From Defluviicoccus sp. (GTDB taxonomy: Bacteria; Pseudomonadota; Alphaproteobacteria; MPNO01), in assembly GCA_028820505.1 (NCBI GenBank), contig JAPPIT010000225.1:356-64355 (forward strand): a stretch of 64,000 bases of DNA. Direction: 5' to 3'. Positions 15,787 through 44,307 of the stretch are shown one piece after another. The first letter of the stretch is position 1, and every line of letters begins with the position of its first letter. The notes below the pieces were generated by a model. That model saw nothing but the letters and a program-made list of their open reading frames with translations. It had not been told where the DNA came from and did no database searches. Made by a program: the position numbers and the translations under genes.

Positions 15787-15824
15787 TGGCCGCCCGCGCC
15801 GCGGCCCCCAACGACGAGACACGC

Positions 15825-17165: not shown

Positions 17166-17191
17166 ACCGATCGAGGGAGGGTCCGGCCGGC

Positions 17192-17842
17192 ATGAGGGAC
17201 CGCAACGACGTTACCATGAACGCGCTGATCCCGATGGTGGTCGAGCAGACCAACCGGGGCGAGCGGGCCTACGACATCTTCTCGCGGTTGCTCAAGGAGC
17301 GGATCATCTTCCTGATCGGCGGGGTCGACGATGCCGTCGCGTCGCTGATCTGCGCCCAGATGCTCTATCTCGAATCCGAGAACCCGACCAAGGACATCGC
17401 GTTCTACATCAACTCGCCGGGCGGGCTGGTGACCTCGGGGCTCGCGGTCTACGACACCATGCAGTACATCCGCCCGGAGATCTCGACGGTCTGCATCGGC
17501 CAGGCGGCGTCGATGGGCTCGCTGCTGCTGTCGGCCGGCGCCAAGGGCAAGCGCTATTCGCTGCCGCATGCGCGGATCATGGTGCATCAGCCCTCGGGCG
17601 GGTTCCAGGGTCAGGCGACCGACATCGAGATCCACGCCCGCGAGATCCTCACGCTCAGGGGCCGCCTCAACCAGATCTATGTCGAGCACACCGGCCAGGA
17701 CATCGGCACCATCGAGGAGGCGATGGAGCGCGACAAGTTCCTCTCGCCGGAGGACGCGAAGGAATTCGGCCTGATCGACGAGGTGGTCACCAGCCGCCCG
17801 GTCCCCGACGCCGCGGCGGAGGCCGCGGGCGGAGGGAGTTAG
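17192..17842 (+). CDS. clpP: ATP-dependent Clp protease proteolytic subunit
   Basis: Catalytic motifs GQAASMGS and MVHQPSGG; canonical tig-clpP linkage. Confidence 0.9.
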
Positions 17843-25468: not shown

Positions 25469-26533
25469 ATGAAACACGACATCCCCGTCTTCGACGGCGA
25501 CGGCCATGTCCTCGAGCCCGACCGCGAACTCGCGGAGCACTACGAGGGCAGGTGGACCGGCAACCGCCGTCTCGAAGGCATGACCATCTTCCCGAGCCTC
25601 GACGGCTGGTCGCGCAGCTCGATCGTGGGGGAAGGCGACGAAGGCCGCAGATACTGGTCGACCGATTCCGACATCTGGGCCGAGATCCTCGACAAGATCG
25701 GACTCGAAGGCAGCGTTCTCTACCCCACCTCCGGGCTCGCCTACGGGCTGATGCAGAGCGAGGAGTTCCAGACCGCAACCTGCATCGCCTACAACAACTG
25801 GCTGGAAGAGCAGTACACCAGGAAGGACAGCCGGCTCTGGGGCGTCGGGCTGATCCCCTACAACGACGTCGAGGCGGCGAAGAAGGAAGTCGCCCGCTGC
25901 GCCACCCAGCGAACCAATTTCGGCGCGATGCTGCTGCCGACGGTCACCGTCAACGGCAAGTATTTCGGCGACGAGTGCTACTGGCCGATCTACGAGGAGG
26001 CCGAGCGCCAGGGGATGACCATCGCGTTCCACGGCGCGGTGAGCCGGGGCTTCGGGCTCGACAACCTGAAGCCCTTCCTCAAGGTCCACACGCTCGAGCA
26101 TCCGGTCCCGCTGATGATCCAGATGACCGACATGATGTTCAACGGCGTCTTCGAGACTTTCCCGAACCTCAAGTTCGCGTTTCTCGAAGGCGGCTGCGCC
26201 TGGATCACCTTCATGATGGACCGGCTCGACTACGAGCTCGATTCGGTTTTCGGCGTGCCGGTCCGGTCCAAGCTGTCCAAGAAGCCGTCGGAGATCATCC
26301 GCGACACCGAGAGCATCTGGCTGTCCTGCGAGATGGGCGAAAAGAGCCTCAAATACGTCATCGACGCGATGGGATCGGACCGGATCATCTACGCGTCCGA
26401 TTTCCCGCACGAGCCGACGGAAGACGATCTGACGGCCGACGTGCCGGACTTCCTCGCCGACAACGAGTACTCGATGGAGGTCAAGGAAAAGATCCTCTAT
26501 CACAACACCAAGGCGCTCTACGGCATCCAGTAG
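25469..26533 (+). CDS. amidohydrolase_2 family protein (ACMSD/LigW/LigJ-like metal-dependent decarboxylase or hydratase)
   Basis: 354 aa from MKHDIPVFDGDGHV (DxHxH-like N-terminal metal site), TIM-barrel amidohydrolase_2 pattern. Confidence 0.75.
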   Translation: MKHDIPVFDGDGHVLEPDRELAEHYEGRWTGNRRLEGMTIFPSLDGWSRSSIVGEGDEGRRYWSTDSDIWAEILDKIGLEGSVLYPTSGLAYGLMQSEEFQTATCIAYNNWLEEQYTRKDSRLWGVGLIPYNDVEAAKKEVARCATQRTNFGAMLLPTVTVNGKYFGDECYWPIYEEAERQGMTIAFHGAVSRGFGLDNLKPFLKVHTLEHPVPLMIQMTDMMFNGVFETFPNLKFAFLEGGCAWITFMMDRLDYELDSVFGVPVRSKLSKKPSEIIRDTESIWLSCEMGEKSLKYVIDAMGSDRIIYASDFPHEPTEDDLTADVPDFLADNEYSMEVKEKILYHNTKALYGIQ

Positions 26534-26615
26534 CCGCGGCCGCTCCGTTCGCGCCCGGCCGGCCGGCCTGCGCCGGCGGGGCGTCGGCGGAATCGTCCAG
26601 CGCGGGAATACGGGC

Positions 26616-27953
26616 GTGCGGATATTTTCACGCAAGAAGCGGCCGATGCATCTCGGCCCCTATCCGATGGAGAAGCTGCGGCGCGTCGACCGTCCGACGA
26701 CGCTGATCACGGAAAACGTGAAGCAGGTGCCCAAGCGCGCCGGCTTCTTCGTCCGCGCCTTCTACGGCGACCTCGGCCCCAAGCCGGCAAGGGAAATCCG
26801 CCGCTTCATCACCAAGAACCCGCTGAACGCGGCGATCGGCCACCTGCACTGGAAGCACGTGCCCGCCCACAAGGGCGATCCGGCGGACGAGAAGGCGCCG
26901 CTCCCGAACGATGCGGAAGAGCTTACGAAACACATCAAGTCGCTCTGCTACTTCCTCGATGCGGACATGGTCGGGGTCTGCGAGGTTCCCGAATACGCCT
27001 GGTTCTCGCACGAGAGCGACGGCACGCCGATCGAGACCCGGCACAAATACGCCGTCGTCATCGTGATCGACCAGGGCTGGGACACGTTCGAAGCGTCGTC
27101 CGGCGACGACTGGGTCTCGGGCGCGCAGAGCTATCGCGCCTATCTGAACGGCTCTACCACCGCCACCATCGTCGCCGACTATATCCGCCGCCTCGGATAT
27201 CCCGCCCAGGCGCACTCCAACGCCCACGGCGACGTGATGCAGATCCCGCTGATGCTCCTTGCCGGGCTCGGCGAGATGAGCCGTATCGGGGAGCTCGTCC
27301 TCAACCCCTTCATCGGGCCGCGCCACAAGACCGCGATCGTCACCACCGACCTGCCGCTGGTTCCCGACAAGCCGATCGATTTCGGGCTCCAGGATTTCTG
27401 CGACAAGTGCCGAAAATGCGCCCGCGAGTGCCCGGCCCAGGCCATCCCGTTCGGCGACAAGGTGCTCTACAACGGCTACGAGATCTGGAAGCCCGACGTC
27501 GAGAAATGCACAAAGTACCGGGTGACCAACCTGAAGGGCTCGGCCTGCGGGCGCTGCATGAAGATGTGCCCGTGGAACAAGGAGGGGCTGCTCGCCCACC
27601 GGCTCGCGATGTGGGCGGCGATCAGGCTGCCGCTCTCGCGCCGCTTCCTGATCTGGCTCGACGACGCGCTCGGCTACGGCAAGCGGAACCCGGTCAAGCG
27701 CTGGTGGCTCGACCTGGTGAAGGAGGACGGCCGGATCGTCGCGGCGTCCGGCACCAACGAGCGCGACCTGTCGCTCGAACGCGATGTCTCGGGCGGCAAC
27801 GAACGGGTCGCGACCTACCCGGTGGACAAGCTGCCGACCGCCGGGGACAAGGAGACCGTGCCGCTGGACCGCAAGGCGGGGCTCGACGATACGAGGCGAG
27901 CGGAAGAAGAGCTGGCCGCGCTCAAGGAAGAGGTGGCGGGGCCGGCGCGCTGA
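26616..27953 (+). CDS. reductive dehalogenase (RdhA)-homologous, cobalamin/[4Fe-4S] protein, cytoplasmic type
   Basis: AGLGEMSRIGELVLNPFIGPRHKTAIVTTDLPLVPDKPIDFGLQDFCDKCRKCARECP plus second CGRCMKMCPW motif; closely resembles the RdhA/QueG corrinoid-Fe-S core; no Tat signal and no RdhB-like anchor gene. Confidence 0.65.
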   Translation: MRIFSRKKRPMHLGPYPMEKLRRVDRPTTLITENVKQVPKRAGFFVRAFYGDLGPKPAREIRRFITKNPLNAAIGHLHWKHVPAHKGDPADEKAPLPNDAEELTKHIKSLCYFLDADMVGVCEVPEYAWFSHESDGTPIETRHKYAVVIVIDQGWDTFEASSGDDWVSGAQSYRAYLNGSTTATIVADYIRRLGYPAQAHSNAHGDVMQIPLMLLAGLGEMSRIGELVLNPFIGPRHKTAIVTTDLPLVPDKPIDFGLQDFCDKCRKCARECPAQAIPFGDKVLYNGYEIWKPDVEKCTKYRVTNLKGSACGRCMKMCPWNKEGLLAHRLAMWAAIRLPLSRRFLIWLDDALGYGKRNPVKRWWLDLVKEDGRIVAASGTNERDLSLERDVSGGNERVATYPVDKLPTAGDKETVPLDRKAGLDDTRRAEEELAALKEEVAGPAR

Positions 27954-27959
27954 GTCCGC

Positions 27960-28364
27960 TCAGCCCTTCGCCGACGCTCCGAGAACGCCCTCCGCCTCGA
28001 TCTCGACATTCATCTCCGGCGCCGCGAGCGCGCTCACCTCGACCAGCGTCGACACCGGAAAATCGCCCGTAAAGAACTCGCGCCGCGCGCGCCACACCTC
28101 TTCGCGGTTGCGGATGTCGGTGACGAAGATGTTGACCCTGACGATATCCGCCATCGATCCGCCGGCGGCCTCGATCAGATGCTTTATCTTGGTCAGGCAG
28201 ACCCTGGCCTGCTCGTACTCGTCCATGTCCGCGAGCGGCTTGAAATCGGCGCCGCGCGCCGTCATGCCGGCGATGTAGACGCGATCGTCCGCGACGAGAC
28301 AGTTGGACCATGTCTCCGGCGGGGGCTCCGACACCTTTTCCGACTGAACGCGTTCGATCGCCAT
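27960..28364 (-). CDS. RidA/YjgF family protein
   Basis: 134 aa from MAIERVQSE with GGAGG SD; YjgF fold signature near the C-terminus. Confidence 0.8.
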   Translation of the reverse strand: MAIERVQSEKVSEPPPETWSNCLVADDRVYIAGMTARGADFKPLADMDEYEQARVCLTKIKHLIEAAGGSMADIVRVNIFVTDIRNREEVWRARREFFTGDFPVSTLVEVSALAAPEMNVEIEAEGVLGASAKG

Positions 28365-28477
28365 CTCGTACCTCCCTGCCGGCCGATGCCGGGTCAGTTT
28401 CCGCGCCGCGGCGGGTCGGGGCAAGCCCGGCATACGCTTGTCGCCGGTGAGCCCGCCACCTAGGTTGCTCCGTCGGC

Positions 28478-29455
28478 ATGCGCCGAATCCCGACACAAGG
28501 TATTTCGATGGCAGGGAATCCGCTTCGAGGCAGTTCCGACGCGCGCGGCCTTGCCATGCGCGTCCTGACCTCGCCCTATCTCGCGGTCACCGTCGCGATG
28601 CTGTGCTGGGCCGGCAGCACCGTCGTCGTGCGCGGATTGCGCGACGAAGCCCCGCCGCTCGGGCTTTCGTTCTGGCGCACCCTGCTCGGCGCCATGATCG
28701 TCCTGCCCTTCGCCTGGCGTCCGATGATGCAGCAGATCCACCTCATTCGGCGGCATTTCTGGATCATGCTGCTGCTGGCCTTCCTGCTGTTCGTCGGCGG
28801 CAACGCCGTCCTGTTCCTGTCGCTGCAATACACCATCGCCATCAATGTCGGGGTTCTGAACTCCTTCGAGCCGCTGATCATCATCATTGCCGCCTGGGCG
28901 ATCTTCCGCGACCGCGTGACCTTCAACCAAGTCGCCGGGGTGCTGGTCTCCCTGCTCGGCGTCTTCGCGTTGATCGGGCGGGGCGATCCCCGGGCGATCC
29001 TCGCGCTCGACTTCAATCTCGGCGATATCCTGGTGCTCGGCGCCTATATCAGCTGGGCGCTGTACGCGGTCTATCTCAGACTCGCTCCGCGCGCGCTGGA
29101 CCAGCGCGTGATGCTCTTCCTGCTCCTGTTCCTGGGCGCGCTGCTGCTGATCCCGTTCTACCTGATCGAATGGGCGGTCGACCGGCCGATGACCTTCGGC
29201 CTGCCCTCGATCGCCGCCATCGTGGGGCTCGCGCTGTTCTCCTCGGTCATCGCCGTCTTCCTGTGGAACTACTCGATCCAGCATCTCGGCCCCTCGCTCG
29301 CGGGAATCTTCATCCACATGATCGTGGCCTTCACGGTGGTCATGGCGATCGCGTTCCTGGGCGAGGTCTTCGCCTGGTTCCACGGCGTGGGCGTGGCGCT
29401 GATCGGAGCCGGGATCTACCTGTCGATCTATCGCGGCCGGGCGGATGGCGGCTGA
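28478..29455 (+). CDS. DMT superfamily (EamA-like) transporter
   Basis: 10 predicted TM helices, duplicated EamA domains; alternative start at 28508. Confidence 0.75.
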   Translation: MRRIPTQGISMAGNPLRGSSDARGLAMRVLTSPYLAVTVAMLCWAGSTVVVRGLRDEAPPLGLSFWRTLLGAMIVLPFAWRPMMQQIHLIRRHFWIMLLLAFLLFVGGNAVLFLSLQYTIAINVGVLNSFEPLIIIIAAWAIFRDRVTFNQVAGVLVSLLGVFALIGRGDPRAILALDFNLGDILVLGAYISWALYAVYLRLAPRALDQRVMLFLLLFLGALLLIPFYLIEWAVDRPMTFGLPSIAAIVGLALFSSVIAVFLWNYSIQHLGPSLAGIFIHMIVAFTVVMAIAFLGEVFAWFHGVGVALIGAGIYLSIYRGRADGG

Positions 29456-29558
29456 CGCGCCCGCGCCATAGACTGTTCCAGGGATATTCGCGGGACCGCC
29501 GGCCTCCGCGCGCGCGGCGCGATCCGAACGAACGTTTTCGAGGCGAGGGACGACACGC

Positions 29559-30347
29559 ATGGCCACCGACAAGATGCTGTCCGCGGTCGACGACGGGATC
29601 GGCCGGATGATCTTCAACAATCCGGAGCGCCGGAACGCGGTCTCGCTCGAAATGTGGGAAGCCGCGGAGGAGATCCTGCGCGGGTTCGCCGAGAATCCCG
29701 ACGTGCGCGCGGTGGTGCTGAGCGGCGCCGGCGGAAGGGCGTTCGTATCCGGCGCCGACATCTCGAAATTCGAGTCCGAACGCTCGTCGGAAGAGGGCAT
29801 CCGGAACTACAACGCCAAGGTCGCCTCGGCCAACGCGATGGTGGCGACGCTCCCGAAGCCCACCATCGCCGAGATCGACGGCTACTGCGTCGGCGGCGGG
29901 CTCGGCCTCGCGCTCTGCTGCGATCTCCGCTTCTGTTCGGAGAAGTCCCGCTTCGCGCTGCCGGCGGCGAAGCTCGGCCTCGGCTACGGGTTCGGCGGGC
30001 TCAAGCGCCTGGTCGATGCCGTCGGTCCCGGGGCGGCGCGCGACATCGTCTTTTCCGCCCGCATGATCCCCGCCGGCGAGGCCTACGCGATCGGTCTCGT
30101 CCAGCGCGTCGTGCCTGACGGCGCGCTCGCCGAGACCGTCACCGAATACGCACGGACCGTCGCCGCCAACGCACCGCTCACCGTGAAGGGCATGAAGCTG
30201 ATCGTGAACGAGGTGCTGAAGCCCGAAGCCGAGCGCGACCTCGCGCTGTGTCAGGAGCTCGTCGACGCCTGCTTCGCCAGCGAGGACTATGTCGAGGGGC
30301 GCACCGCCTTCATGGAAAAGCGCCCGCCCGCGTTCAAGGGACGCTAA
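29559..30347 (+). CDS. enoyl-CoA hydratase/isomerase (crotonase) family protein
   Basis: MIFNNPERRNAVS...VLSGAGGRAFVSGADI oxyanion-hole motifs. Confidence 0.85.
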   Translation: MATDKMLSAVDDGIGRMIFNNPERRNAVSLEMWEAAEEILRGFAENPDVRAVVLSGAGGRAFVSGADISKFESERSSEEGIRNYNAKVASANAMVATLPKPTIAEIDGYCVGGGLGLALCCDLRFCSEKSRFALPAAKLGLGYGFGGLKRLVDAVGPGAARDIVFSARMIPAGEAYAIGLVQRVVPDGALAETVTEYARTVAANAPLTVKGMKLIVNEVLKPEAERDLALCQELVDACFASEDYVEGRTAFMEKRPPAFKGR

Positions 30348-30361
30348 GGCGCGGCGCCTTT

Positions 30362-31513
30362 CTACAGCAAATGCCCGCTCTTCTCCGCCTTGGTCGACAG
30401 GTAGAAGGCGTTGTGGTCGTTCGAGGGGAAGCTGTGCGGGACGCGTTCGGCGACCTCGATGCCGAAGCGGGCGAGCGCCTCGACCTTGTCGGGGTTGTTG
30501 GTCATCAGCCGGACCGACGAATAGCCGAGCCTGCGCAGCATCTCCGCGGCGGGGAGGAACACGCGCTCGTCGGCGTCGAACCCGAGCCTCTCGTTGGCCT
30601 CCACGGTATCGAAGCCGAGATCCTGCAGGGCGTACGCGCGGAGCTTGTTGATGAGCCCGATGCCGCGCCCTTCCTGGGCGAGGTAGAGGAGAATGCCGGC
30701 CCCGTCGGCGGATATCTGTTCGATGGCGCCGCGCAGCTGCTGCCCGCAATCGCATTTGAGCGAGCCCAGCAGATCGCCGGTGAAGCACTCCGAATGGAGC
30801 CTCGCCAGCACCGGGCCGGGCGGGGGAGGGTCGTTTATCGCGATCGCGAAATGCTCGGTCCCCCCGTCCCGCGGGCGAAAGGCGTGGATCCGCGCCCCCT
30901 CGGCCCCTTCGAGCGGCACCCTCGCCGCCGTGACCCGCTCGAGCCGGTGCGAGGCGGCGACGTCGTAGGACATGATCCCGGACGGTCCCACCCGCAGCAG
31001 ATCCGCCTTTTCGGTCCCCAGCGCGGCGGCGATGTCGTCGACCTCGACGGCGACCGTCGCCGGCAGGAGACGCGCGATCTTGGCAAGCCGAACCGACGCC
31101 AGCACGCCGGCCGGCACCGGCTCGCGCCGCGCCTCGAAGGGGCCGCGCAGCGGCTGGGCGAGGTCGGCCGCCGGGTCGGCGAGGCTTGCCAGCGCCTCGA
31201 TCGACAGCCACCCGGGGACGGGAATCCGGATCACGTCCGGCGTATAGAGGCGGATTTTCAGGGTGGCGGCCCGGTTATGGGTGATCGCGAGGTCCGGTTC
31301 CCGACCGGCCAGACGGCGCAACGCGTCGAGCCGGGACGCGGAGACGAGCTCGGCCGCGAAGGCCACGACGCCGCCGGCGTCCCCGGGTTCGGCGAGAATC
31401 ACGGGCAAGCCGCGGCGCAGATCGCCGGCTGCACGGTCGACCGCGGCGGTCCCGCCGGTCTCGAATCCCGGCATGGCCCCGGGCGGCGCCCGTTCGGAGG
31501 ACTTCGAACCCAT
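30362..31513 (-). CDS. ribA: GTP cyclohydrolase II (RibA) with N-terminal degenerate DHBP-synthase-like domain
   Basis: C-terminal half has zinc motif CFTGDLLGSLKCDCG and RGIGLINKLRAY; alternative starts at 31534 and 31474. Confidence 0.8.
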   Translation of the reverse strand: MGSKSSERAPPGAMPGFETGGTAAVDRAAGDLRRGLPVILAEPGDAGGVVAFAAELVSASRLDALRRLAGREPDLAITHNRAATLKIRLYTPDVIRIPVPGWLSIEALASLADPAADLAQPLRGPFEARREPVPAGVLASVRLAKIARLLPATVAVEVDDIAAALGTEKADLLRVGPSGIMSYDVAASHRLERVTAARVPLEGAEGARIHAFRPRDGGTEHFAIAINDPPPPGPVLARLHSECFTGDLLGSLKCDCGQQLRGAIEQISADGAGILLYLAQEGRGIGLINKLRAYALQDLGFDTVEANERLGFDADERVFLPAAEMLRRLGYSSVRLMTNNPDKVEALARFGIEVAERVPHSFPSNDHNAFYLSTKAEKSGHLL

Positions 31514-31620
31514 GCCCCTAAATACGCCCCGCATGGCGTCCGGGCAACGCGCCGCCCTGCCTTGCCCGCGACTGTCCCCTATGCCAGTTTGGCGCCCGTT
31601 CGCCTGCCGGCGGGGAGCCG

Positions 31621-32637
31621 ATGGACGCAACCGAAGTCAAGGCCCTGGCGAAGGATCTGGGCGCGGACCTGGTCGGGATCGCGGACGCCTCCGTCCTGAA
31701 CGCGTTTCCGCCCGACCCGCTCTTCCCGCAGACGCCGGAGCGGATCTCGCCGCACGTCAAGAGCGTCGTCGCTATCGCGCAGCGCATTCCGGTCGGCGCG
31801 TTCCGCTGCAAGACCAACGTACCGGTCCAGTATATCGACATGCTCGTGCTGAGGCGGATGGACAGGATCGCCTACCGCCTCGTCGACGCGCTCGAACGGG
31901 CCGGCCATCCGAGCTTCGTGACCGCCGCGCAGGAGACCGACTGGAGCTACAAGCGCGCGAGCTACGGGCGGCTCTCGACGCGCCATCTCGGCATCGAGGC
32001 AGGGCTCGGCACGTTCGGGCTCGAGGTCAACATCCTGACGCCCGAGTTCGGGCCGAGAATCTACCTGACGGGCGTGCTGACGGAGTGCGAGCTCGAGGCC
32101 GACAGGCCGATGACCGAGCAGGTCTGCATCGGCGAGAGCTGCAGCCGCTGCCTCTATTCCTGCCCGTCCGACGCGGTCCGTCATTTCGGCATCGACAAGC
32201 GCGCCTGCGCGACCGAGGCGCAGGAGTTCGGGTTCACGACGATCCTCAAGTTCTGGGAGCATTTCCTGGTCTCCGACGGGGAAACCAGGCGGCGCCTGAT
32301 CGCGGACCGGGAAATCTACGGCTTCTGGCAGGGATTGCTCAGGGTGGTCGGCTCGTTCGGCGACTGCCCGCGCTGCCTCGCGGTCTGCCCCGTCGGCAAC
32401 GACTACCATGCCTTTCTCGCCCCGCTTCAGAAGGTCATCCCGGAGAAGACGCCGGAGAAGGTCGAGAAGGCCTCCGCGTTCAAGGAGGCCCGCAAGTCGG
32501 GCGCCGAGGTCGACGGGCTGAACGACTGGAACGTGCGCTGGGTGGGGCCCGAAGGCTACAAGGGCATCGTCGCGCGCCAGCTCCAGGCGTTCAGGGCGTT
32601 GCAGCGCGAGCGCGAGACGACCGCCTCGGAGCGATAG
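31621..32637 (+). CDS. QueG/RdhA-superfamily Fe-S protein (epoxyqueuosine-reductase-like), paralog 1
   Basis: AGLGTFGLEVNILTPEFGPRIYLTGVLTECELEADRP then CIGESCSRCLYSCP and CPRCLAVCP; lacks the QueG C-terminal HEAT domain. Confidence 0.65.
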   Translation: MDATEVKALAKDLGADLVGIADASVLNAFPPDPLFPQTPERISPHVKSVVAIAQRIPVGAFRCKTNVPVQYIDMLVLRRMDRIAYRLVDALERAGHPSFVTAAQETDWSYKRASYGRLSTRHLGIEAGLGTFGLEVNILTPEFGPRIYLTGVLTECELEADRPMTEQVCIGESCSRCLYSCPSDAVRHFGIDKRACATEAQEFGFTTILKFWEHFLVSDGETRRRLIADREIYGFWQGLLRVVGSFGDCPRCLAVCPVGNDYHAFLAPLQKVIPEKTPEKVEKASAFKEARKSGAEVDGLNDWNVRWVGPEGYKGIVARQLQAFRALQRERETTASER

Positions 32638-33648
32638 ATGGTCGGCGTATTCCAGACCCCGCTCGACGCGGAGACCATCAAGGCGAAGGCGAGGGCGCTC
32701 GGCGCCGATCTCGTCGGCATCGCCGACGGCGCGGTGATGGACGCGCACCCGCCGGACCCGCGCGACCCGCGCCGCCCGAGCGACATCACCGAGCATGACG
32801 GCGGACGGGCGATCGTGCTCGCCAAGCGCTATTCCGCCGGCACCACCCGGATCGCGCGCTGGGACGAACGGCACAAATACTACAACGACGAGCTCGTCCT
32901 CACGATGCTGGAAGAGACCTCGCTCGAGCTGGTCTTCTGGCTGGAGGACAACGGCTATCCGGCGATCATCATCCCGCCGACCCACGCCGATCCGTGGCTC
33001 TATCGCGGCGACCGCAACCAGCACATGACCACGGTGCTGTCGCTGACCCATGCCGCGGTCGAGGCCGGGCTCGGTACGCTGGGCCTCAATTTGCAGCTCA
33101 TCACCCCGGAGTTCGGCCCGCGGGTCCTGGTCACCGCGGTGCTTTGCTCGGTCGATTGCGATACTGACGGACGGCGGGAGGAGGCGCTCTGCCTCGGCCC
33201 GGAATGCGGCCGCTGCCTGACCGCCTGTCCGGGCGACGTGGTGGGGCACTGGGACCGCGACTGGCCCGCCTGCGACAGCTACCGGTCGCCGCACGGGTTC
33301 TCGCAGCTCGCGAGCCATCTCGGCGATATCCTGGAGGCGCCGGACGACGCGGCCCGGCTCGACATGATCCGCTCGGAGACCAGCTTCAACCTGTGGCAGA
33401 GCATCTTGCGCGGCGCCGGCGTCATCAGCGGGTGCCGGCGCTGTCAGGACGTGTGTCCGGTAGGCGAGGACTACGCCCGGATGATCGGCGACAGCCTTGA
33501 CGAGATGCCCGAGGCGACCCCGGAAAAGGCCCGGCGACTCGCCGCCATGGCGGAGGCCGAGGCGTCGGGAAATCTGCCCGCCTCCTATGCCGACCAGGAG
33601 CGCTGGATCGGCGCGCTCGGCTATCTCGGGAGCGACGCCGCGGAATGA
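32638..33648 (+). CDS. QueG/RdhA-superfamily Fe-S protein, paralog 2 (tandem)
   Basis: AGLGTLGLNLQLITPEFGPRVLVTAVLCSVDCD then CLGPECGRCLTACP and CRRCQDVCPVG; starts one codon after paralog 1 stops. Confidence 0.65.
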   Translation: MVGVFQTPLDAETIKAKARALGADLVGIADGAVMDAHPPDPRDPRRPSDITEHDGGRAIVLAKRYSAGTTRIARWDERHKYYNDELVLTMLEETSLELVFWLEDNGYPAIIIPPTHADPWLYRGDRNQHMTTVLSLTHAAVEAGLGTLGLNLQLITPEFGPRVLVTAVLCSVDCDTDGRREEALCLGPECGRCLTACPGDVVGHWDRDWPACDSYRSPHGFSQLASHLGDILEAPDDAARLDMIRSETSFNLWQSILRGAGVISGCRRCQDVCPVGEDYARMIGDSLDEMPEATPEKARRLAAMAEAEASGNLPASYADQERWIGALGYLGSDAAE

Positions 33649-34991
33649 GCGCGCTGGAGAGCCTGGCCCGGGGGCGCCCGGACATCTACGCCGGCCTGCC
33701 GCTCTGCATCCCGGAGAGCCCGGAAGAAATCTCGGAAATCCAGAGCAGGCGGAAGCGCATCGCCGTGGAGCGCGCCCGGCGGTCGTCCTTCTGGCGCCCG
33801 CGCCTCGAAGGGATCGCCATCGACAGGCTCGACGATCCGGAGGAATGGTCGAAGATCCCGGTCCTGACCAAGGACCGGCTCCGCGCGATGTCGGACGAGG
33901 CGTTCTACCGGGAGTTCTGCACGCTCGACGGTCAGCGGATCTGCGAATACTGGCGCTCGGGCGGGAGCACCGGAAAGCCGCTGTTCTACCCGAAGACGTT
34001 CGAGGACATCCTGTTCAACATGGTCGGCTTCATCCGCACCTTCGCGTCCGCCGGCATCGAGGACGGGGAGAACCACAGGGCGCACATCTCGACCCCGCTC
34101 GGAGTCCACCCCGTGGGCCACATGTGGGCGCGCGCGGCGCAGATCGTGGGGATGGGCGCGGTGTGGGCGGGCTCCGGCGCGTCGCTGCCGTCGGTTCAGC
34201 AGCTCGCCCTGATTTCCTCGCTGAAGCCCACCGTCTGGATGGGCATGTCGAGCTACGGCCTGCACCTGGCCAACCTCGCCAATTCGAACGGTATCGATCT
34301 GGGCGAGAGTTCGGTTTCCACCATGCTGTGCTCCGCCGAGGCGCTTTCGGCGGCCAAGCGGGAAAAGCTCGAGCGCGACTGGGGCGCCCGGGTCTTCGAC
34401 TGTTTCGGGATGACCGAGATCAGCATGCTGGCCGCCGAGGGGCCGTCCCGCGAGGGGTTCAGGATCTGGACCGATCTCGCGATTTTCGAGGTGCTCGACC
34501 CCGACACCGGCAAGCCGGTTCCGGACGGCGAGCCCGGCCACCTGGTCTGCACGTCGCTGTTCGGCAACAACGGGGCGCCGTTCCTGCGCTGGGATTCGGG
34601 CGATATCGTGGTCATGAAGCCCGCCGCGGGCGACGACGGCGCGTTCTCGGTCTTTCCGACGATGCGCCACGCCCACCGCACGGCGGGTTTCTTCAAGCTG
34701 CGCGGGGTCAACGTCAACCACCAGGAGTTCGAGGACATGATGTTCGAGCACCGCTCGGTGAACGACTTCAAGCTCGAACTGATCGGCGACGCCGCCGGGC
34801 TCGAAAGCCTGCGGGTCTCCGTCGAGCCGCGGCGCGGCGCCGATACCGACGCGCTGCGCGAAGACCTGGAGAGGCGCACCAAGGCGACGTTCGAGCTTTC
34901 GCCCGACATCGTGATCCTGGAACCCGGCGTGCTGGCCCGCGAATTCGAGGCCAGCGTGAAAGCGCCGCGCTTCATCGACCGGCGCCGGTAA
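33645..34991 (+). CDS. phenylacetate-CoA ligase / coenzyme F390 synthetase family adenylate-forming enzyme
   Basis: P-loop SGGSTGKP, PaaK-like N-terminal domain; ATGA overlap with the upstream gene. Confidence 0.75.
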   Translation: MSALESLARGRPDIYAGLPLCIPESPEEISEIQSRRKRIAVERARRSSFWRPRLEGIAIDRLDDPEEWSKIPVLTKDRLRAMSDEAFYREFCTLDGQRICEYWRSGGSTGKPLFYPKTFEDILFNMVGFIRTFASAGIEDGENHRAHISTPLGVHPVGHMWARAAQIVGMGAVWAGSGASLPSVQQLALISSLKPTVWMGMSSYGLHLANLANSNGIDLGESSVSTMLCSAEALSAAKREKLERDWGARVFDCFGMTEISMLAAEGPSREGFRIWTDLAIFEVLDPDTGKPVPDGEPGHLVCTSLFGNNGAPFLRWDSGDIVVMKPAAGDDGAFSVFPTMRHAHRTAGFFKLRGVNVNHQEFEDMMFEHRSVNDFKLELIGDAAGLESLRVSVEPRRGADTDALREDLERRTKATFELSPDIVILEPGVLAREFEASVKAPRFIDRRR

Positions 34992-35356: not shown

Positions 35357-35448
35357 TGGCGGATGGGGTGGGATTCGAACCCACGAGACGCTTGCGCGCC
35401 TGCCGGTTTTCAAGACCGGTGCCTTCGACCGCTCGGCCACCCATCCGC
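35357..35448 (-). tRNA. tRNA-Ser (anticodon TGA)
   Basis: Class II tRNA on minus strand: GCGGATG acceptor, GGCCGAGCGGTCGAAGGC D-arm, loop CTTGAAA, long variable arm, GGTTCGAATCC T-arm; CCA not fully encoded. Confidence 0.8.
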
Positions 35449-35573: not shown

Positions 35574-36506
35574 ATGAAGACGCTGGTGCTCGAGAATACG
35601 GCCCCGTTCCAGGGGTTGTGCGAACTGGTCGCCGACGACGAGAGGCTGTTCGCGAACGAAGGTCTCGAAATCGAATGGGTCGACCGCGAGGCCGGAGTCG
35701 ACAGGCGGACCCGCGTCGACATTCTCGGTCCCGAAGGGCTCGATCCCCACTCGAGCCACGGCAAGCTCTTCGAAGAGGGCCGGGCGGACATGTACAACGC
35801 CTGCGAGTGGGGGAATTACTGCAGGGTGCAGGACTCCGGCATCGAGGGCGGACGCCAGATCGGCCGTCGTTCGATCATCACCTACGCGGCGATCGCGGTG
35901 CGCCCCGACTCCGACGTGTTCACCGTGCAACAGCTCGCCGACCGGCTGGTGGGCGTCCCGTTCTATTTCGGCACCCATTATCTCGCCCTTCACATGCTGG
36001 AGGGTTTCCTGCCGCGCGACCGAATCCGGGTGTGCAGCGCCCCGATGGGCTCCCGCTTCCGTCTCGATTCGATGATGTCGGGCGAGATCGAGGCGACCAC
36101 GCTGACCGAGCCCTACATCACGCTCGCGGAGAAAAAGGGCTGCCGTATCCTGACGGCCGCGTTCTATCACGGCACCGAGGTCGCGTCCGACAAGGTCGAC
36201 GCCGATACCTATGCGCGGTTCAACCGCGCCGTCCGGGAGGCCGTGCGCCTGATCCAAGGCGACAAGACGAAATACCTGCGCCATTTCATCGACTACCATG
36301 CCGGCGACCCGGAAATCGCGGCGTTGAGCGTCGGCGATCTCCGCCCGAGCCGGATCGTCGTCGTCGAGCCCGCGCCCATCCCGGACCGCGAGCTCGAACG
36401 CACCGCGGCGTGGATCCGGAGCTGGGGCATGCTGCGCGAGACCGAAGACGCGGCTTCGCTGGTCGACCTCGAAATACAGTCGGCGGCCCACCGGGCCGCG
36501 GAATAG
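35574..36506 (+). CDS. NMT1/THI5-like domain protein (SsuA/ThiY-like fold, no signal peptide)
   Basis: 310 aa from MKTLVLENTAPFQ; periplasmic-binding-protein-like II family pattern but apparently cytoplasmic. Confidence 0.5.
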   Translation: MKTLVLENTAPFQGLCELVADDERLFANEGLEIEWVDREAGVDRRTRVDILGPEGLDPHSSHGKLFEEGRADMYNACEWGNYCRVQDSGIEGGRQIGRRSIITYAAIAVRPDSDVFTVQQLADRLVGVPFYFGTHYLALHMLEGFLPRDRIRVCSAPMGSRFRLDSMMSGEIEATTLTEPYITLAEKKGCRILTAAFYHGTEVASDKVDADTYARFNRAVREAVRLIQGDKTKYLRHFIDYHAGDPEIAALSVGDLRPSRIVVVEPAPIPDRELERTAAWIRSWGMLRETEDAASLVDLEIQSAAHRAAE

Positions 36507-36578: not shown

Positions 36579-38210
36579 TTGGTCCAGAGAACGACTTACG
36601 ACTACGTGATCGTCGGCGCCGGGTCGGCCGGCTGCGTGCTCGCAAACCGGCTGAGCGAAGACCCCGAGGTCAGGGTGCTCGTCGTCGAGGCCGGCGGCCG
36701 GGACCGGGATCCGATGATCCACATCCCGCTCGGCTGGGGGAAGATCCTCGAGGAACGGCGCCACGACTGGATGTACTTCACCGAGCCGGAGCCCAACCTG
36801 GACAACCGGTCGATCGAGTGCGCGCGCGGACGGGTGGTCGGCGGCTCGTCGTCGATCAACGCGATGGCCTATGTCCGCGGTCACCGGGGCGATTACGACC
36901 GCTGGCGCCAGAAGGGCTGTCCGGGATGGTCGTATGCCGACGTGCTGCCCTATTTCAAACGCTCCGAGGCCTGGGAAAAGGGGGGCGACGATTACCGCGG
37001 GGACGGCGGCCCGCTGACCGTGCGGGCGGGAATCTTCGACGACCCAGTGCTGCACGCGTTTATCGAGGCCGGGCGCGCGGTCGGCCACGATTTCACCGAG
37101 GATTACAACGGGGCCCGACAGGAGGGCTTCACCTGGCTCCAGCAGACGATCCGGAACGGGCGCCGCTGTAGCGCCGCCGTCGCCTATCTCAAGCCCGCCC
37201 TGAACCGTCCCAACGTGACGCTCGAGACCGGCGCGCTCGCGACCCGCCTCCTGATCGAGAACGGGCGGGCCGCCGGGCTCGAATTCTCCCGGAACGGGCA
37301 GCTGACGGAAATCGGCGCCGAACGCGAGGTGCTGCTCGCCGGGGGCGTGATCAACTCGCCGCAAGTGCTGATGCTGTCGGGAATAGGCCCCGCCGACGAG
37401 CTCGCCGAGCACGGGATCGACGCCGTGCTCGACCTGAAGGGCGTCGGCAAGAACCTGCAGGATCACCTGTCGGCGACGGTCTCCTTCAGCCGCGAGGACC
37501 GCGGCACCTTCCACGGGCAGATGCGGATGGACCGGCTCGCCGTGGACGTGCCCCGGGCCTATGTCGCCGGCTCCGGGCCGGCGACCGATCTTCCCGGCGG
37601 CATCATGGCCTTCCTGAAATCCCGGCCGGAGGTCGAGCTGCCCGACATTCAATTCCTGTTTCGTTCGCTCCCCAACGATACCTGGCCGTGGTTTCCCGTG
37701 GTGAAACCCGGCTGGGCGGACGGCTTCGGCTGCCGGCCGGTGCTGCTCCGCCCGCAGAGCCGGGGCGAGCTCAAGCTCGCCTCCGCCGATCCGCGGGACA
37801 AGATCCGCATCCACCAGAACTTCCTTTCCGAGGAGGCGGACGTCCGGACGATTCGGGACGGGGTGAAACTGGTCCGGGAGGTGGGCCGCCAGGAACCGCT
37901 GAAGAAGTTCGGCACGATCGAGGTCGATCCCGGTCCGGACGTGACCGGCGACGACGAGATCGACGCCTTCGTGCGGCGGAACGCGGCGACCGCGCATCAT
38001 CCCGCCGGCACCTGCCGCATGGGGAGCGACGACATGGCGGTGGTCGATCCGGAATTGCGCCTCAGGGGTATCGACGGGGTTCGCGTGGTCGACGCATCGG
38101 TGATGCCGGATCTCGTCGGCGGCAACATCAACGCGCCGGTGATCATGATCGCCGAACGCGCGTCCGACCTGATCCGCGGCCGCGAGCCGCTGGCCCCCGC
38201 CGAGGTGTGA
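36579..38210 (+). CDS. GMC family oxidoreductase (choline dehydrogenase-like flavoprotein)
   Basis: TTG start with GGAGGAG SD; YDYVIVGAGSAGCVLANRLSED FAD motif, GMC signatures. Confidence 0.85.
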   Translation: MVQRTTYDYVIVGAGSAGCVLANRLSEDPEVRVLVVEAGGRDRDPMIHIPLGWGKILEERRHDWMYFTEPEPNLDNRSIECARGRVVGGSSSINAMAYVRGHRGDYDRWRQKGCPGWSYADVLPYFKRSEAWEKGGDDYRGDGGPLTVRAGIFDDPVLHAFIEAGRAVGHDFTEDYNGARQEGFTWLQQTIRNGRRCSAAVAYLKPALNRPNVTLETGALATRLLIENGRAAGLEFSRNGQLTEIGAEREVLLAGGVINSPQVLMLSGIGPADELAEHGIDAVLDLKGVGKNLQDHLSATVSFSREDRGTFHGQMRMDRLAVDVPRAYVAGSGPATDLPGGIMAFLKSRPEVELPDIQFLFRSLPNDTWPWFPVVKPGWADGFGCRPVLLRPQSRGELKLASADPRDKIRIHQNFLSEEADVRTIRDGVKLVREVGRQEPLKKFGTIEVDPGPDVTGDDEIDAFVRRNAATAHHPAGTCRMGSDDMAVVDPELRLRGIDGVRVVDASVMPDLVGGNINAPVIMIAERASDLIRGREPLAPAEV

Positions 38211-40941: not shown

Positions 40942-41388
40942 ATGCCCGAAAAGACGGTTGCCCTGGCTGCGGACCATGCCGGCTTCGCGTTAAAGTCGCA
41001 CCTCCTCGACTGGCTCTCCGGCAGGGGTATCGTCACCAGGGATCTCGGCACCGACAGCGAGGACGCGGTGGACTACCCCGACTTCGCCGGAGCCCTTGTC
41101 GACATCCTGCAGGCCGGCGCGGCGGAGTGCGGGGTGTTGATTTGCGGCAGCGGCATCGGCATGTCGATTGCCGCCAACCGGCATCGCGGCATCCGTGCCG
41201 CCCTGGCGAGCGATGCCGAAACGGCGCGGCTTGCGCGTCAGCATAACGACGCGAACGTTCTGGTTCTTCCGGGGCGTCACATTTCGACCGTCGAGGCAGA
41301 GTGCTGCATGGAAGCGTTCCTTACGGCGACCTTCGAGGGAGGGCGGCACCGGCGCCGCCTGGACAAGATCGCTCAAGGAGTATCATAA
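40942..41388 (+). CDS. rpiB: ribose-5-phosphate isomerase B
   Basis: [15 protein letters not shown]...[14 protein letters not shown] (RpiB/LacAB family). Confidence 0.8.
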
Positions 41389-41398
41389 CGGGGATGAC

Positions 41399-42709
41399 AT
41401 GTCAGTAAAACAACTTGAAGGCGATGCGGAGATCCACGAAGGCTTCTTCGAACACCCGATTTGCGATTCCGATCCCGCGGTGGACGCCGCGCTGCGCTCG
41501 GAACTGGCTCGCCAGCAGGACCAGATCGAACTCATCGCCTCCGAGAACATCGTTTCGCGCGCCGTGCTGGAGGCGGCGGGCTCCGTGCTGACCAACAAAT
41601 ATGCCGAGGGCTATCCCGGCCGGCGCTATTACGGCGGATGCGAATTCGTCGACGTCGCCGAAAACCTCGCCATCGAGCGGGCCAAGACGCTGTTCGGCTG
41701 CGCCTTCGCCAACGTGCAGCCGCATTCGGGCGCTCAGGCCAACGCCGCGGTCTATTTCGCGCTCTGCAAGCCCGGGGACACGATCCTCGGGCTGTCGCTC
41801 GCCGCCGGCGGACATCTGACCCATGGCGCGGCGCCCAACCTGTCGGGCAAGTGGTTCGACGCGGTGCAGTACGGCGTGCGCGAGGACGACGGCCGGATCG
41901 ACATGGACGAGGTGGCCCGACTCGCCCGCGAGCATCGTCCGAGGGTCATCGTCGCCGGCGGGTCCGCCTATCCGAGAATCATCGATTTCGCCGCATTCCG
42001 CGAGATAGCCGACGAGGTCGACGCCTGCCTGTTCGTCGACATGGCCCACTTCGCGGGACTCGTCGCGGGCGGCGTTCATCCCAGCCCCTTGCCCCATGCC
42101 CATGTCGTCGCGACGACGACCCACAAGACCCTGCGCGGCCCCCGCGGGGGCATGGTGCTGACCGATGACGAGGCGATCGCGCGAAAGATCAACTCTGCGA
42201 TTTTCCCGGGAACCCAGGGCGGGCCGCTCATGCATATCGTTGCCGCGAAGGCGGTAGCGCTGGGCGAGGCGCTGCGGCCCTCCTTCCCGCGCTACGCCGC
42301 CGCCGTGGTGGAGAACGCCAGGACCCTCGCGCAGACCCTGCTCGACGGCGGCCTGAACATCGTGTCCGGCGGTACCGACACGCATCTGATGCTGGTCGAC
42401 CTCAGGCCGAAGGGGCTGACCGGCAAGACCGCCGAGCAAAGCCTCGAACGGGCCGGCATCACCTGCAACAAGAACGCGGTTCCGTTCGATCCGGAGAAGC
42501 CGACCGTAGCGTCGGGAGTCAGGCTGGGATCGCCCGCGGCGACCACCCGCGGATTCGGTCCGGCGGAGTTTGCGCGGGTCGGCGCGCTGATCCTCGAAGT
42601 GCTCGACGGGCTCGCCTCGGGAAGCAACGACAACGGCCCCGTCGAGACCTCGGTACGCCAGCGCGTGCGTGCCCTGTGCGACCGATTTCCGATATACCCC
42701 CACCAGTGA
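41399..42709 (+). CDS. glyA: serine hydroxymethyltransferase
   Basis: 436 aa; [20 protein letters not shown]-Lys region [13 protein letters not shown]. Confidence 0.9.
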
Positions 42710-42728
42710 CCGGGGTTAGGATGCGCTG

Positions 42729-43193
42729 ATGCGTTGCCCCTTTTGCGGTCACGGCGACACCCAGGTGCGGGACTCGCGCCCGACGGAAGACAATTCCGCG
42801 ATCCGCCGGCGCCGATCCTGCCAGTCCTGCGGGCAACGGTTCACCACTTTCGAAAGGGTGCAGCTCCGCGAACTGACGGTGGTCAAGAAGGACGGCGCGC
42901 GCGAGCCGCTCGACCGCGAGAAGCTGGAGCGCTCGATGCGGATCGCCCTGCGCAAGCGGCCCGTCGAGGCCGAGCGCGTCGAGCTGGTCATCAACAGCAT
43001 CATCCGCCGGCTGGAGAGTTCGGGCGAGACGGAAGTGAACTCCGACACGATCGGGGAAATGGTGATGGACGCGCTCTCCACCCTGGACCAGGTCGCCTAT
43101 GTCCGTTTCGCATCGGTCTATCGCAACTTCCGCGAGGCGCGCGACTTCGGAGACTTCATCGGCAATCTCGGTGTCGTCGAAGGCGGAGAGTGA
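42729..43193 (+). CDS. nrdR: transcriptional repressor NrdR
   Basis: [17 protein letters not shown] zinc ribbon plus ATP-cone. Confidence 0.9.
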
Positions 43194-43203
43194 CCGGCGC
43201 TTC

Positions 43204-44295
43204 ATGCGCGGCGCGATTTCGATCGCGCGCCGCGCGCTCGGCAATGCCTGGCCGAATCCTGCCGTGGGCTGCGTTATCGTCCGCGACGGCGTCGCGGTCG
43301 GACGCGGATGGACGGCGCCCGGGGGCCGCCCCCACGCGGAAACCGAGGCGCTCGCCCGCGCCGGCGCCGGGGCCCGGGGAGCCACGGCCTATGTCACCCT
43401 GGAACCGTGCGCCCATGTCGGCCGGACCCCGCCCTGCGCGGACGCGTTGATCGAGGCCGGAATCTCCCGCGTCGTCGTCGCCTGCCGGGATCCCGACCCG
43501 CGCGTGGACGGCCGAGGCATGGGGACGCTGGCCGCGGCGGGCGTCGCGGTCGAAACGGGTCTGTGCGCCGACGAGGCCGAGGAGGGGCTGAGCGGCTTTC
43601 TGACCCGGGTCCGCCACGGCCGCCCCGCAATCACGCTCAAGCTCGCCACCACGCTCGACGGCCGGATCGCGACGCGGTCCGGCGAAAGCCGCTGGATAAC
43701 GGGCGAGGCGGCGCGCCGGGCCGCTCACATGCTGCGCGCCCGGCACGACGCGATCCTGGTCGGGGCGGGTACCGCGCGACAGGACGATCCGCGCCTGACA
43801 TGCCGGCTTCCCGGGCTGGAGGAGCGGAGTCCCGTCCGCATCGTCGTCGAGGGGCGCGAGCCCGTTCCGGCGGCCCATTCGCTGATCGCCGACGCGGCCC
43901 GCATCCCGACCTGGGCGATGGTGGCGGAACCGCTCGCAGCCGAGCGCGGGGAGACATATCGGGACACCGGCGTCGAGCTCGAGGCGGTCGCGGCCGACCG
44001 TGCGGGCGACGTCGATCTCGCCGCGGCGCTCGGAATCGTCGCCCGAAGGGGAATCACGTCGGTGCTGGTCGAAGGCGGAGGGCGCATCGCGGCGGCGCTC
44101 CTCCGCGCCGGCCTCGTCGACCGTCTGGTGTGGTACCGGTCCGGGTTGGCCATCGGCGCCGACGGCGCCCCGGCACTCGGAGCGCTGGAGGTCGACGCGC
44201 TTGACGCCGCGCCGCGCTTCGGGAAGATAGCGAGCCGGCCGGTCGGCGAGGACGTCGAGGAAGTTTACCGGCCGGCGTCGAAGCCGGACGGTTGA
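43204..44295 (+). CDS. ribD: bifunctional diaminohydroxyphosphoribosylaminopyrimidine deaminase / 5-amino-6-(5-phosphoribosylamino)uracil reductase
   Basis: Deaminase zinc motif HAETEAL...TLEPCAH..TPPC and reductase domain. Confidence 0.85.
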
Positions 44296-44307
44296 GCGGA
44301 CAGGCCG

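Follow-up and report, generated by a model that had tools for sequence, protein, structure and literature searches.

The genes at positions 25469 to 34991 of a 64,000-nucleotide stretch of Defluviicoccus sp. DNA (contig JAPPIT010000225.1; the whole stretch is hereafter called the window) raise the question of whether they serve one pathway or several. A homologue of reductive dehalogenases (RdhA) is encoded there together with two tandem paralogues resembling the epoxyqueuosine reductase QueG, here named Q1 and Q2, and a PaaK-family adenylate-forming ligase; Q1, Q2 and the ligase are referred to as the trio. A sequence-only reading had proposed that the region as a whole encodes a coenzyme A (CoA)-dependent pathway, in which an aryl or heteroaryl acid is activated and then reductively modified. 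The genes and motifs that it listed were all recovered in the open reading frame (ORF) listing and the hidden Markov model (HMM) scans, and its placement of the three proteins in the RdhA/QueG (class III cobalamin/[4Fe-4S]) superfamily was upheld by the TIGR02486 match of RdhA and by the fold, profile alignment and Cys residues of Q1 and Q2. The pathway idea survived in part: Q1 and Q2 were tied to an adenylate-forming ligase, whereas the whole stretch did not hold together as one pathway. With slightly better than even confidence, the 9.5-kb stretch is read here as a lineage-specific juxtaposition of a stand-alone RdhA unit and a self-contained Q1–Q2–ligase operon, the trio being a corrinoid/Fe-S reductase that acts on an activated acid.

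Genes of the window were taken from the ORF listing and from HMM scans with the Pfam and NCBIfam models (Table 1). The trio was surveyed in species-representative genomes, and 80 loci were returned, every one from metagenome-assembled genomes (MAGs). Complete MAG chromosomes with the trio include OZ220750.1, OY763326.1, OZ244980.1 and OZ244893.1. The loci with a Q1 identity of at least 88% were defined as the Defluviicoccus clade, and the nearest genomes were Defluviicoccus MAGs with a Q1 identity of 97–98%. Neighbours were counted by tblastn with defined queries and from called genes; antisense ORFs contaminate GC-frame heuristics at ~68% GC.

Conservation of the Q1–Q2–ligase trio

The TAG stop codon of Q1 directly abuts the ATG of Q2, and the overlap between Q2 and the ligase gene reads ATGA, so the tight coupling described from the sequence was confirmed. 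The hexamer GGGGAG sits 6 nt 5' of the Q1 ATG. Q2 was found immediately 3' of Q1 in 75 of the 80 loci. The ligase was counted over the 68 loci with at least 1.4 kb beyond Q2, and an adenylate-forming ligase of any type followed Q2 in 63 of them. A PaaK-type ligase was immediately 3' of Q2 in 60 loci and lay beyond an inserted PaaA/C-like gene in one (L066), whereas a FadD-type AMP-binding ligase occupied the same slot as a non-orthologous replacement in two (L079 and L080). In 12 of 76 loci, spread over several clades, a FadD-type ligase also immediately preceded Q1. Moreover, Q1 and Q2 occurred as natural fusions (P0121, 670 amino acids (aa); P0122, 678 aa). Hence, the ligase displacement, the natural fusions and the translational coupling indicate that Q1, Q2 and the adenylate-forming enzyme work together. 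Q1 was the most conserved gene of the trio: 151 of its 338 residues were at least 98% constant among 66 sequences from Alpha- and Betaproteobacteria. The corresponding number for Q2 was 113 of 336 residues in 59 orthologues. At 50% clustering, the Q family comprised 85 representatives at E <1e-30 and 508 at E <1e-10, including Q1–Q2 fusions and single-gene relatives of 260–330 aa. No Q1 homologue was present in the plasmid collection.

Judged from its sequence, the ligase is a member of a PaaK-like subfamily and not a PaaK orthologue. It scored 112.7 bits against TIGR02155 (PaaK; cut-off 646.3), so this check of the PaaK assignment failed, and 148.5 bits against NF041878 (cut-off 700). The AMP-binding domain was matched, and the AMP-binding_C_2 score was slightly under its cut-off of 25. 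The closest solved relative was PaaK 4R1L (E 1.5e-30), and the solved relatives spanned E 1e-30 to 1e-19. The AMP-binding plus AMP-binding_C_2 architecture is that of PaaK (4R1L, 2Y27) and of 2-hydroxyisobutyryl-CoA synthetase (6HDW), and the GGSTGKP loop and the C-terminal K-A-x-R-x-x-D-x-R motif are further likenesses to PaaK. In contrast to PaaK, the ligase is always coupled to Q1Q2, and the window has no paaABCDE genes.

The recurrent neighbours of the trio were LIV-type ABC transporters, an old yellow enzyme-like reductase, a thioesterase-like gene, enoyl-CoA hydratases (ECHs), an acyl-CoA dehydrogenase, a thiolase, a Rieske oxygenase and an HbpS-like protein; they point to CoA-dependent catabolism of organic acids. 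Genes for PaaA/C-like di-iron oxygenase subunits occurred within 4–10 kb of the trio in nine loci, and most loci, the window included, had no PaaA/C gene. The richest context was found in a Betaproteobacteria MAG (L066:4387-15739), where hydantoinase A, a PaaA/C-like gene, two ECHs, a Rieske ferredoxin and a TetR gene were followed by Q1, Q2, a PaaA/C-like gene, the PaaK-like ligase and a LivK-type binding protein. An HbpS-like/DUF336 gene was located 3.5–10 kb downstream of the trio in 13 loci (e.g., L016:20455-20886, L034 and L030). Haem binding has been reported for members of the HbpS-like/DUF336 family, and cobalamin binding is also said to occur in it. A candidate redox partner of NuoEF type is encoded in L034.

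Fold, proposed cofactor and proposed reaction of Q1 and Q2

The motifs read in Q1 were AGLGTFGLEVNILTPEFGPR and CIGESCSRCLYSCP, and those in Q2 were AGLGTLGLNLQLITPEFGPR and CLGPECGRCLTACP (Cx4Cx2Cx3CP). The two proteins were 37% identical, with the Cys ligands and the AGLG..GPR loop common to both. The eight Cys residues (C169, C174, C177, C181, C196, C249, C252 and C256 in Q1 numbering) were laid out as Cx4Cx2Cx3CP, one lone Cys and CxxCxxxCP. This layout and the core loop were kept family-wide; across 44 diverse sequences, each of the eight Cys reached a conservation of 90% or more, and neither orthologue set showed any exchange at these positions. The layout of class III, a nitroreductase-like core followed by a two-cluster ferredoxin module, was present in both proteins. 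In databases, the proteins are labelled 'hypothetical protein' by NCBI and 'ferredoxin' or 'QueG' by JGI ('epoxyqueuosine reductase QueG' for some members).

That label, and the fact that TIGR00276 was the top NCBIfam match, would suit the view that Q1 and/or Q2 are divergent tRNA epoxyqueuosine reductases and that the locus is coincidental housekeeping. QueG (5D08, 5D6S; TIGR00276) does resemble them in the nitroreductase-like core, the AG(L/I)G..G loop, the two-[4Fe-4S] module and similar size. However, both scores were far under the family cut-off (Table 1), and DUF1730 (PF08331), a check suggested by the sequence-only reading, gave no match on Q1 or Q2 at E ≤0.01. The similarity to solved QueG and PceA was weak and local, being confined to ~80 residues of the common core, which include the first Fe-S motif and the AGLG..GPR loop; the remainder was without a match in Pfam or NCBIfam. 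The first cluster of Q1 and Q2 is Cx4Cx2Cx3CP, the D-Y-H motif and the catalytic Asp are not evident, and the fold was equally close to that of RdhAs. The obligatory pairing (or fusion) of Q1 with Q2 and their adenylate-forming ligase partner have no counterpart in QueG biology, and no link to tRNA was seen. A QueG function is therefore scarcely credible, and the identification of Q1 and Q2 as bona fide QueG is effectively refuted. None of the three superfamily proteins in the window is a bona fide QueG, so the sequence-only reading, which was to be given up if they proved to be QueG orthologues with unconserved neighbours, stands on this point.

The fold of Q1 was modelled with AlphaFold from 44 diverse sequences, and the model was confident (pLDDT, the predicted per-residue confidence, 92.6). 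A Foldseek search with it returned only QueG, PceA, a reductive dehalogenase (RDH) complex and NpRdhA (E 1e-7 to 1e-11), followed by MMACHC. In the fold comparison, the scores were 17.5 for PceA, 17.4 for NpRdhA, 16.9 for the RDH complex and 16.3 for QueG, whereas those of the B12 chaperones MMACHC/CblC were ~10 and those of flavin mononucleotide (FMN) nitroreductases and BluB were at most 7.6. The Q1–Q2 pair modelled as a fusion on a shallow alignment had a pLDDT of 45.8 and was unusable. In hhalign, the Q family matched the short RdhAs with a probability of 99.3% over 174 columns. With TIGR02486, Q1 gave only 29 bits and Q2 gave no match; PceA and the respiratory RdhAs (4UQU, 8Q4H) further differ from Q1 and Q2, which have no Tat (twin-arginine translocation) signal, no RdhB and no evident Tyr/Arg dyad. 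According to the weak family scores, the fold matches, the profile match and the conserved Cys residues and core loop, Q1 and Q2 form a class III branch of their own, which has not been described and lies about as far from RdhA as from QueG. In the literature on QueG-like or new class III families, CoA-ligase links, and halobenzoyl-CoA or Defluviicoccus dehalogenases, no description of a Q1–Q2–ligase family was found. It was anticipated from the QueG structure that further class III families probably exist and are unrecognisable by sequence motifs (PMC4646009). The Q1–Q2–ligase set represents a family of the RdhA/QueG superfamily that has not been described, and its quaternary and operon architecture sets it apart.

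Two groups of relatives with a different domain or gene arrangement were also observed. Four proteins of 760–794 aa (P0224, P0238, P0255 and P0258) contain an N-terminal Q-like domain, a QueG_DUF1730 match and a second Fe-S block, and they look like natural Q-like/QueG-like fusions. An archaeal contig with archaellin genes nearby (L091:1596-6006 and L092) carries four Q-like paralogues in tandem, one of them a 572-aa fusion, and no ligase.

A base-off corrinoid may be bound in each Q subunit, as suggested by the ranking of the modelled fold with B12 binders over flavin binders and by the invariant RdhA/QueG loop. The proteins could instead be corrinoid-free and form an electron-transfer or reductase component with four [4Fe-4S] clusters, e.g., for a di-iron PaaA/C-type acyl-CoA oxygenase, in which case their RdhA/QueG-like core would persist only as a relic, comparable with the vestigial domain of NpRdhA. 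This alternative is unlikely. The PaaA/C-like genes in the nine loci, one of them between Q2 and the ligase in L066 where a Rieske ferredoxin is also encoded, are in its favour, as are the catalytic Tyr and Asp that could not be mapped and the example of NpRdhA, in which the fold has lost cobalamin binding (PMC10463259). Nevertheless, the AGLG..GPR loop and its surroundings belonged to the least variable parts of the two subunits, which would be unexpected for a relic. The extreme conservation of Q1 extended beyond the Fe-S motifs, and a PaaA/C gene was missing from most loci.

The gene content, the fold class, the retained ligands, the operon conservation, the fusions and the ligase displacement are shown by the comparisons; the mechanism proposed for a corrinoid-dependent trio is as follows. 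Q1 and Q2 would be the paralogous subunits of a heterodimer, which is one fused chain in some organisms. From a carboxylic acid, which is probably aromatic or alicyclic, the ligase would form an acyl-adenylate or a CoA thioester. The Fe-S chain of Q1Q2 would deliver low-potential electrons to the base-off corrinoid, and a Co(I)-type corrinoid could then carry out a two-electron reductive elimination on the activated acid, i.e., dehalogenation, epoxide deoxygenation or dehydroxylation. We infer both the acyl-CoA or acyl-adenylate substrate and the Co(I)-type reductive chemistry. Epoxide deoxygenation, suggested by the PaaA/C association in nine loci, is attractive but weakly supported.

Several observations weigh against the corrinoid and activated-acid interpretation. 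No position in Q1 or Q2 could be assigned to the Tyr common to RdhA and QueG active sites, and hhalign sets L77 opposite Y176 of RdhA. Two residues after the GPR, RdhAs have Arg or Lys, Q1 has Tyr and Q2 has Leu. The D-Y-H motif and Asp of QueG (D100-Y101-H102 and D130 in S. thermophilus) were not evidently kept in Q1 and Q2, in a region that is weakly aligned: in the weak phmmer alignment, the Asp of the QueG VDTG is set against the Ser/Tyr in ASYG of Q1, and RIAYR stands opposite the DYH region. A sequence motif diagnostic of cobalamin does not exist for class III enzymes (PMC4646009), and the cofactor is unreadable from sequence; the 64-kb window contained no gene for cobalamin synthesis or uptake. 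In five of the 68 loci, no ligase was located beside Q2, and distant single-gene Q-like relatives (30–35% identity) were found in three heterogeneous contexts with no ligase and no functional clue. The neighbourhoods beyond the trio were heterogeneous, and the substrate is not nameable from them. All 80 carriers were MAGs and no named isolate was among them, which deprives the interpretation of physiological support. Furthermore, the retention of ribA beside the trio, described below, could indicate flavin or GTP-derived chemistry.

To our knowledge, class III B12 enzymes have two established activities only, organohalide reduction (RdhA) and epoxyqueuosine reduction (QueG). A bolder proposal, which is tentative and has somewhat less than an even chance, is that Q1Q2 may add a fourth functional family to the class III cobalamin enzymes, namely a heterodimeric, cytoplasmic corrinoid/[4Fe-4S] reductase of CoA-activated (aryl)carboxylic acids. 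It might catalyse halobenzoyl-CoA-type dehalogenation or deoxygenation of PaaA/C ring epoxides, and its many carriers would be uncultured Alphaproteobacteria and Burkholderiales with an aerobic or facultative way of life in wastewater, soil, groundwater and sea water. In coryneform bacteria, 2,4-dichlorobenzoyl-CoA reportedly loses its ortho halogen in a CoA-dependent reductive reaction, which serves here as a lead only. We know of no genes identified for CoA-dependent reductive dehalogenations, which the trio, if corrinoid-dependent, might explain. A corrinoid-dependent trio would also extend the list of B12-dependent reactions and give abundant bacteria of wastewater and soil, e.g., Defluviicoccus, a new need for B12. 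The trio is common in environmental Proteobacteria, and its putative cofactor, substrate and reaction are those given above. It is a concrete, testable class III candidate, being a distinct and highly conserved branch in which the Fe-S and core-loop signature is complete and the partner subunit is defined, and the linked ligase narrows the search for its substrate to carboxylic acids or CoA esters.

The short reductive dehalogenase

The 445-aa RdhA was above the curated cut-off of TIGR02486 (Table 1). In phmmer, its residues 6–435 aligned with residues 251–689 of NpRdhA (PDB 4RAS; E 1.7e-165), and residues 1–222 of NpRdhA matched the same query weakly as a second match. Hence, RdhA corresponds to the NpRdhA core without the vestigial duplicate. 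The N-terminal part of NpRdhA is a vestigial duplicated domain that has lost cobalamin binding, and Y426, K488, R552, F291 and S422 were named as key residues of the enzyme (PMC10463259). Their equivalents in the phmmer alignment are Y176, K238, R302, F45 and S172 of RdhA, all of which were invariant among 15 sequences of the short clade, whereas M423 of NpRdhA is a Tyr in RdhA. The motif read in RdhA was AGLGEMSRIGELVLNPFIGPR...CDKCRKCARECP, plus CGRCMKMCP; the two [4Fe-4S] motifs are located at residues 262–273 (CDKCRKCARECP) and 311–319 (CGRCMKMCP), and all of their Cys were invariant in the 15 clade members. The 445-aa RdhA is a true homologue of reductive dehalogenases and belongs to the NpRdhA lineage as a cytoplasmic, single-core form.

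The absence of a Tat signal and of an RdhB anchor, both of which mark respiratory RdhAs, was verified. The N-terminus (MRIFSRKKRPMHLGPYPMEKLRRVDRPTT) has no RRxFxK twin-arginine motif, and no RdhB is encoded beside RdhA, whose flanks are the amidohydrolase and the convergent RidA gene; there is no room for rdhB because the stops of RdhA and RidA are only 6 bp apart. NpRdhA (Nitratireductor pacificus; 4RAS, 6ZXU) likewise has both Fe-S motifs, the five key residues and no Tat signal, but it contains the ~250-aa vestigial domain by which catabolic RdhAs (NpRdhA/BhbA/JtRdhA) were defined (PMC10463259). RdhA covers only the 251–689 part, and its upstream gene is the unrelated amidohydrolase. NpRdhA-type cores therefore exist without the domain said to define catabolic RdhAs. 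The self-sufficient BhbA and JtRdhA carry a reductase-like C-terminal domain; in RdhA, the Pfam and NCBIfam scans detected no phthalate-dioxygenase-reductase-like C-terminal domain, and the chain ends at residue 445. RdhA is probably a homodimer by analogy with PceA because the vestigial domain is missing. Tat-less single-domain marine reductive dehalogenases (RDases; Ros_A3X954 and the Pararhodobacter enzyme) are cytoplasmic and active debrominases or deiodinases (PMC13101508). They are like RdhA in being of the cytoplasmic catabolic type without a Tat signal; compared by motif and Pfam match only, they differ in having the Fe-S motif CDICTKCADACP instead of CDKCRKCARECP and in matching PF13486. 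The PF13486 match expected for RdhA was not obtained at E ≤0.01, and PF13484, proposed for all three proteins, scored just below its cut-off of 30 (29.7, 21.1 and 29.0 bits for RdhA, Q1 and Q2, respectively).

The characterised NpRdhA-type enzymes act on free ortho-halophenols (PMC10463259). By this homology, the substrates of RdhA are most likely ortho-halogenated phenolic compounds, for which dehalogenation is predicted, and the proposed action of RdhA in a CoA-ester pathway was not sustained. Soluble partners would serve as its electron source.

The short ~445-aa clade is well populated, with 65–96% identity within it, and its members are already named 'reductive dehalogenase' by NCBI. The long ~700-aa NpRdhA-type relatives were only 52–61% identical to RdhA, and all relatives in the plasmid collection, including that on the Comamonas 7D-2 BhbA plasmid, were below 60%. 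Six short-RdhA neighbourhoods from other lineages had heterogeneous gene content, with no trio and no conserved amidohydrolase. In L083 and L084, an unrelated ECH was located upstream and a glucose-methanol-choline (GMC) oxidoreductase downstream of the short RdhA. In L087, the neighbours were housekeeping genes: the short RdhA is flanked by a transketolase-like E1 gene on one side and by trigger factor/ClpP on the other (L087:3952-10389), and the same transketolase-like E1 and trigger factor/ClpP genes are found ~10 kb upstream of RdhA in the window (12419–17842). On a JGI metagenome contig (L086:7001-9276), the gene of a short RdhA with 79% identity to that of the window shares its last 4 bp with the gene of a 317-aa RdhA-like paralogue, and TauE, UbiD and glyoxalase genes are adjacent. 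This tandem pair is an analogue of Q1/Q2, but within the RdhA family. The 317-aa protein was considered as a Q-family partner subunit and rejected; it was 32% identical to RdhA and 23% to Q1, and is an RdhA paralogue.

Local neighbours, the second ribA and the layout of the region

If the region were one integrated CoA pathway, the ligase would thioesterify an aryl acid, RdhA and Q1/Q2 would reduce it, and the amidohydrolase, crotonase, RidA and EamA proteins would process and export the products. All of the genes lie inside 9.5 kb, and their order was kept in 11 related genomes. Moreover, RdhA, EamA, ribA, Q1 and Q2 stay together in L017 with 77–82% identity, and ECH-family and GMC genes flank the short RdhAs of L083 and L084, the GMC proteins being 54–60% identical to that encoded at 36579–38210 of the window. 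However, ~65 loci outside the Defluviicoccus clade had the trio without RdhA, the amidohydrolase, RidA or an orthologous ECH, and the six short-RdhA loci of other lineages had no trio. The genes of the region use both strands and require at least four transcription units, and the halophenols taken by characterised NpRdhA-type enzymes are free. An integrated pathway is accordingly regarded as quite improbable. RdhA, the amidohydrolase, RidA, EamA and the crotonase accompanied the trio only in 11 loci of the Defluviicoccus clade and in part in L016 and L017. Conservation of the neighbourhood, to which the sequence-only reading had appealed, therefore held widely for Q1–Q2–ligase and only within this clade for the other genes.

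The amidohydrolase, RidA, EamA and crotonase genes are local neighbours. The amidohydrolase passed the PF04909 check (Table 1), was 91–97% identical in the Defluviicoccus-clade loci and was found in these loci only; its best solved relatives were uncharacterised Amidohydrolase 2 entries, PtmU3 and LigW. Apart from L016, only close relatives retained RidA beside the region. The EamA copy after RdhA was 52% identical in L017 and 51% identical in L016. The crotonase had been regarded as a pathway partner, but the ECHs near the trio or RdhA in other genomes are not its orthologues because their identity to it was only 28–35%.

The ribA gene has a different distribution. It had been recognised as a second copy, which was borne out by a bifunctional RibBA gene at 44882–46129; the copy in the region is thus an extra one. 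Its probable start at 31513, which gives 383 aa, was derived from a 382-aa orthologue in L002 and from reading of the sequence. The N-terminal ~190 aa had no family match, and residues 190–383 matched E. coli RibA (2BZ0; E 1e-58). In 30 of 67 loci, ribA was divergent to Q1 and within 4 kb of it; these loci all belong to one clade of the Q1 tree, and the link was missing from the other half of the tree, including all Burkholderiales loci. Mere synteny with a rib operon was considered as an explanation and rejected: the nrdR/glyA/rib block was near only in the Defluviicoccus clade, and ribA stayed beside Q1 in ~19 further loci. The ribA link is therefore more than local synteny and less than family-wide, and the long ribA, divergent to Q1, accompanies the trio in that one clade.

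This companion invites the view that the substrate of the trio is of nucleotide or flavin type, with the ligase as a nucleotidyl transferase like coenzyme F390 synthetase, ribA as the source of a GTP-derived precursor and Q1Q2 as its QueG-like reductase. Divergent ribA beside Q1 in several otherwise different contexts, a 75-bit match of the ligase to the F390 synthetase model and the place of QueG among the two closest known families are compatible with it. However, the F390 score was far under the cut-off of 458.7, the ribA link is limited to one clade, and an ordinary FadD-type acyl-CoA synthetase replaces the ligase in L079 and L080 and accompanies it in 12 further loci. An Rfam scan of the window detected three tRNAs only and no riboswitch (cobalamin or FMN). 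A nucleotide substrate is hence considered very unlikely, and an activated acid is retained as the proposed substrate of the trio.

The coordinates and principal matches of the features are given in Table 1.

Table 1. Features between positions 25469 and 34991 of the window, with strand and principal evidence.
Feature	Position	Strand	Evidence
Amidohydrolase_2 family protein (354 aa)	25469-26533	+	PF04909, 97.6 bits
RdhA-like protein (445 aa)	26616-27953	+	TIGR02486, 199.9 bits (cut-off 160.35)
RidA/YjgF family protein (128 aa)	27960-28346	-	PF01042, 77.3 bits
EamA/DMT (drug/metabolite) transporter (325 aa)	28478-29455	+	PF00892, 146.8 bits
Crotonase/enoyl-CoA hydratase (262 aa)	29559-30347	+	PF00378, 180.8 bits; NF004781, 377 bits
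Long GTP cyclohydrolase II (ribA)	ORF 30362-31630; probable gene 30362-31513, ~383 aa	-	PF00925, 195.5 bits
ribA–Q1 divergent intergenic region, 107 bp	31514-31620		Direct reading of the sequence
Q1 (338 aa)	31621-32637	+	TIGR00276, 47.8 bits (cut-off 200)
Q2 (336 aa), paralogue of Q1	32638-33648	+	TIGR00276, 33.7 bits (cut-off 200)
PaaK-family adenylate-forming ligase (448 aa)	33645-34991	+	PF00501, 58.5 bits; PF14535, 23.0 bits

Outside this region, a tRNA-Ser(TGA) at 35357–35446 (-) is located between the ligase and a gene at 35574–36506, whose 310-aa product is without a family match. A housekeeping block at 41141–46129 comprises glyA (serine hydroxymethyltransferase), nrdR and the bifunctional ribBA. 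At 2952–4583 (+), a single stop-to-stop frame contains ABC ATPase, oligo_HPY and short-chain dehydrogenase domains; it may be one fused gene or two separate genes that share the frame.

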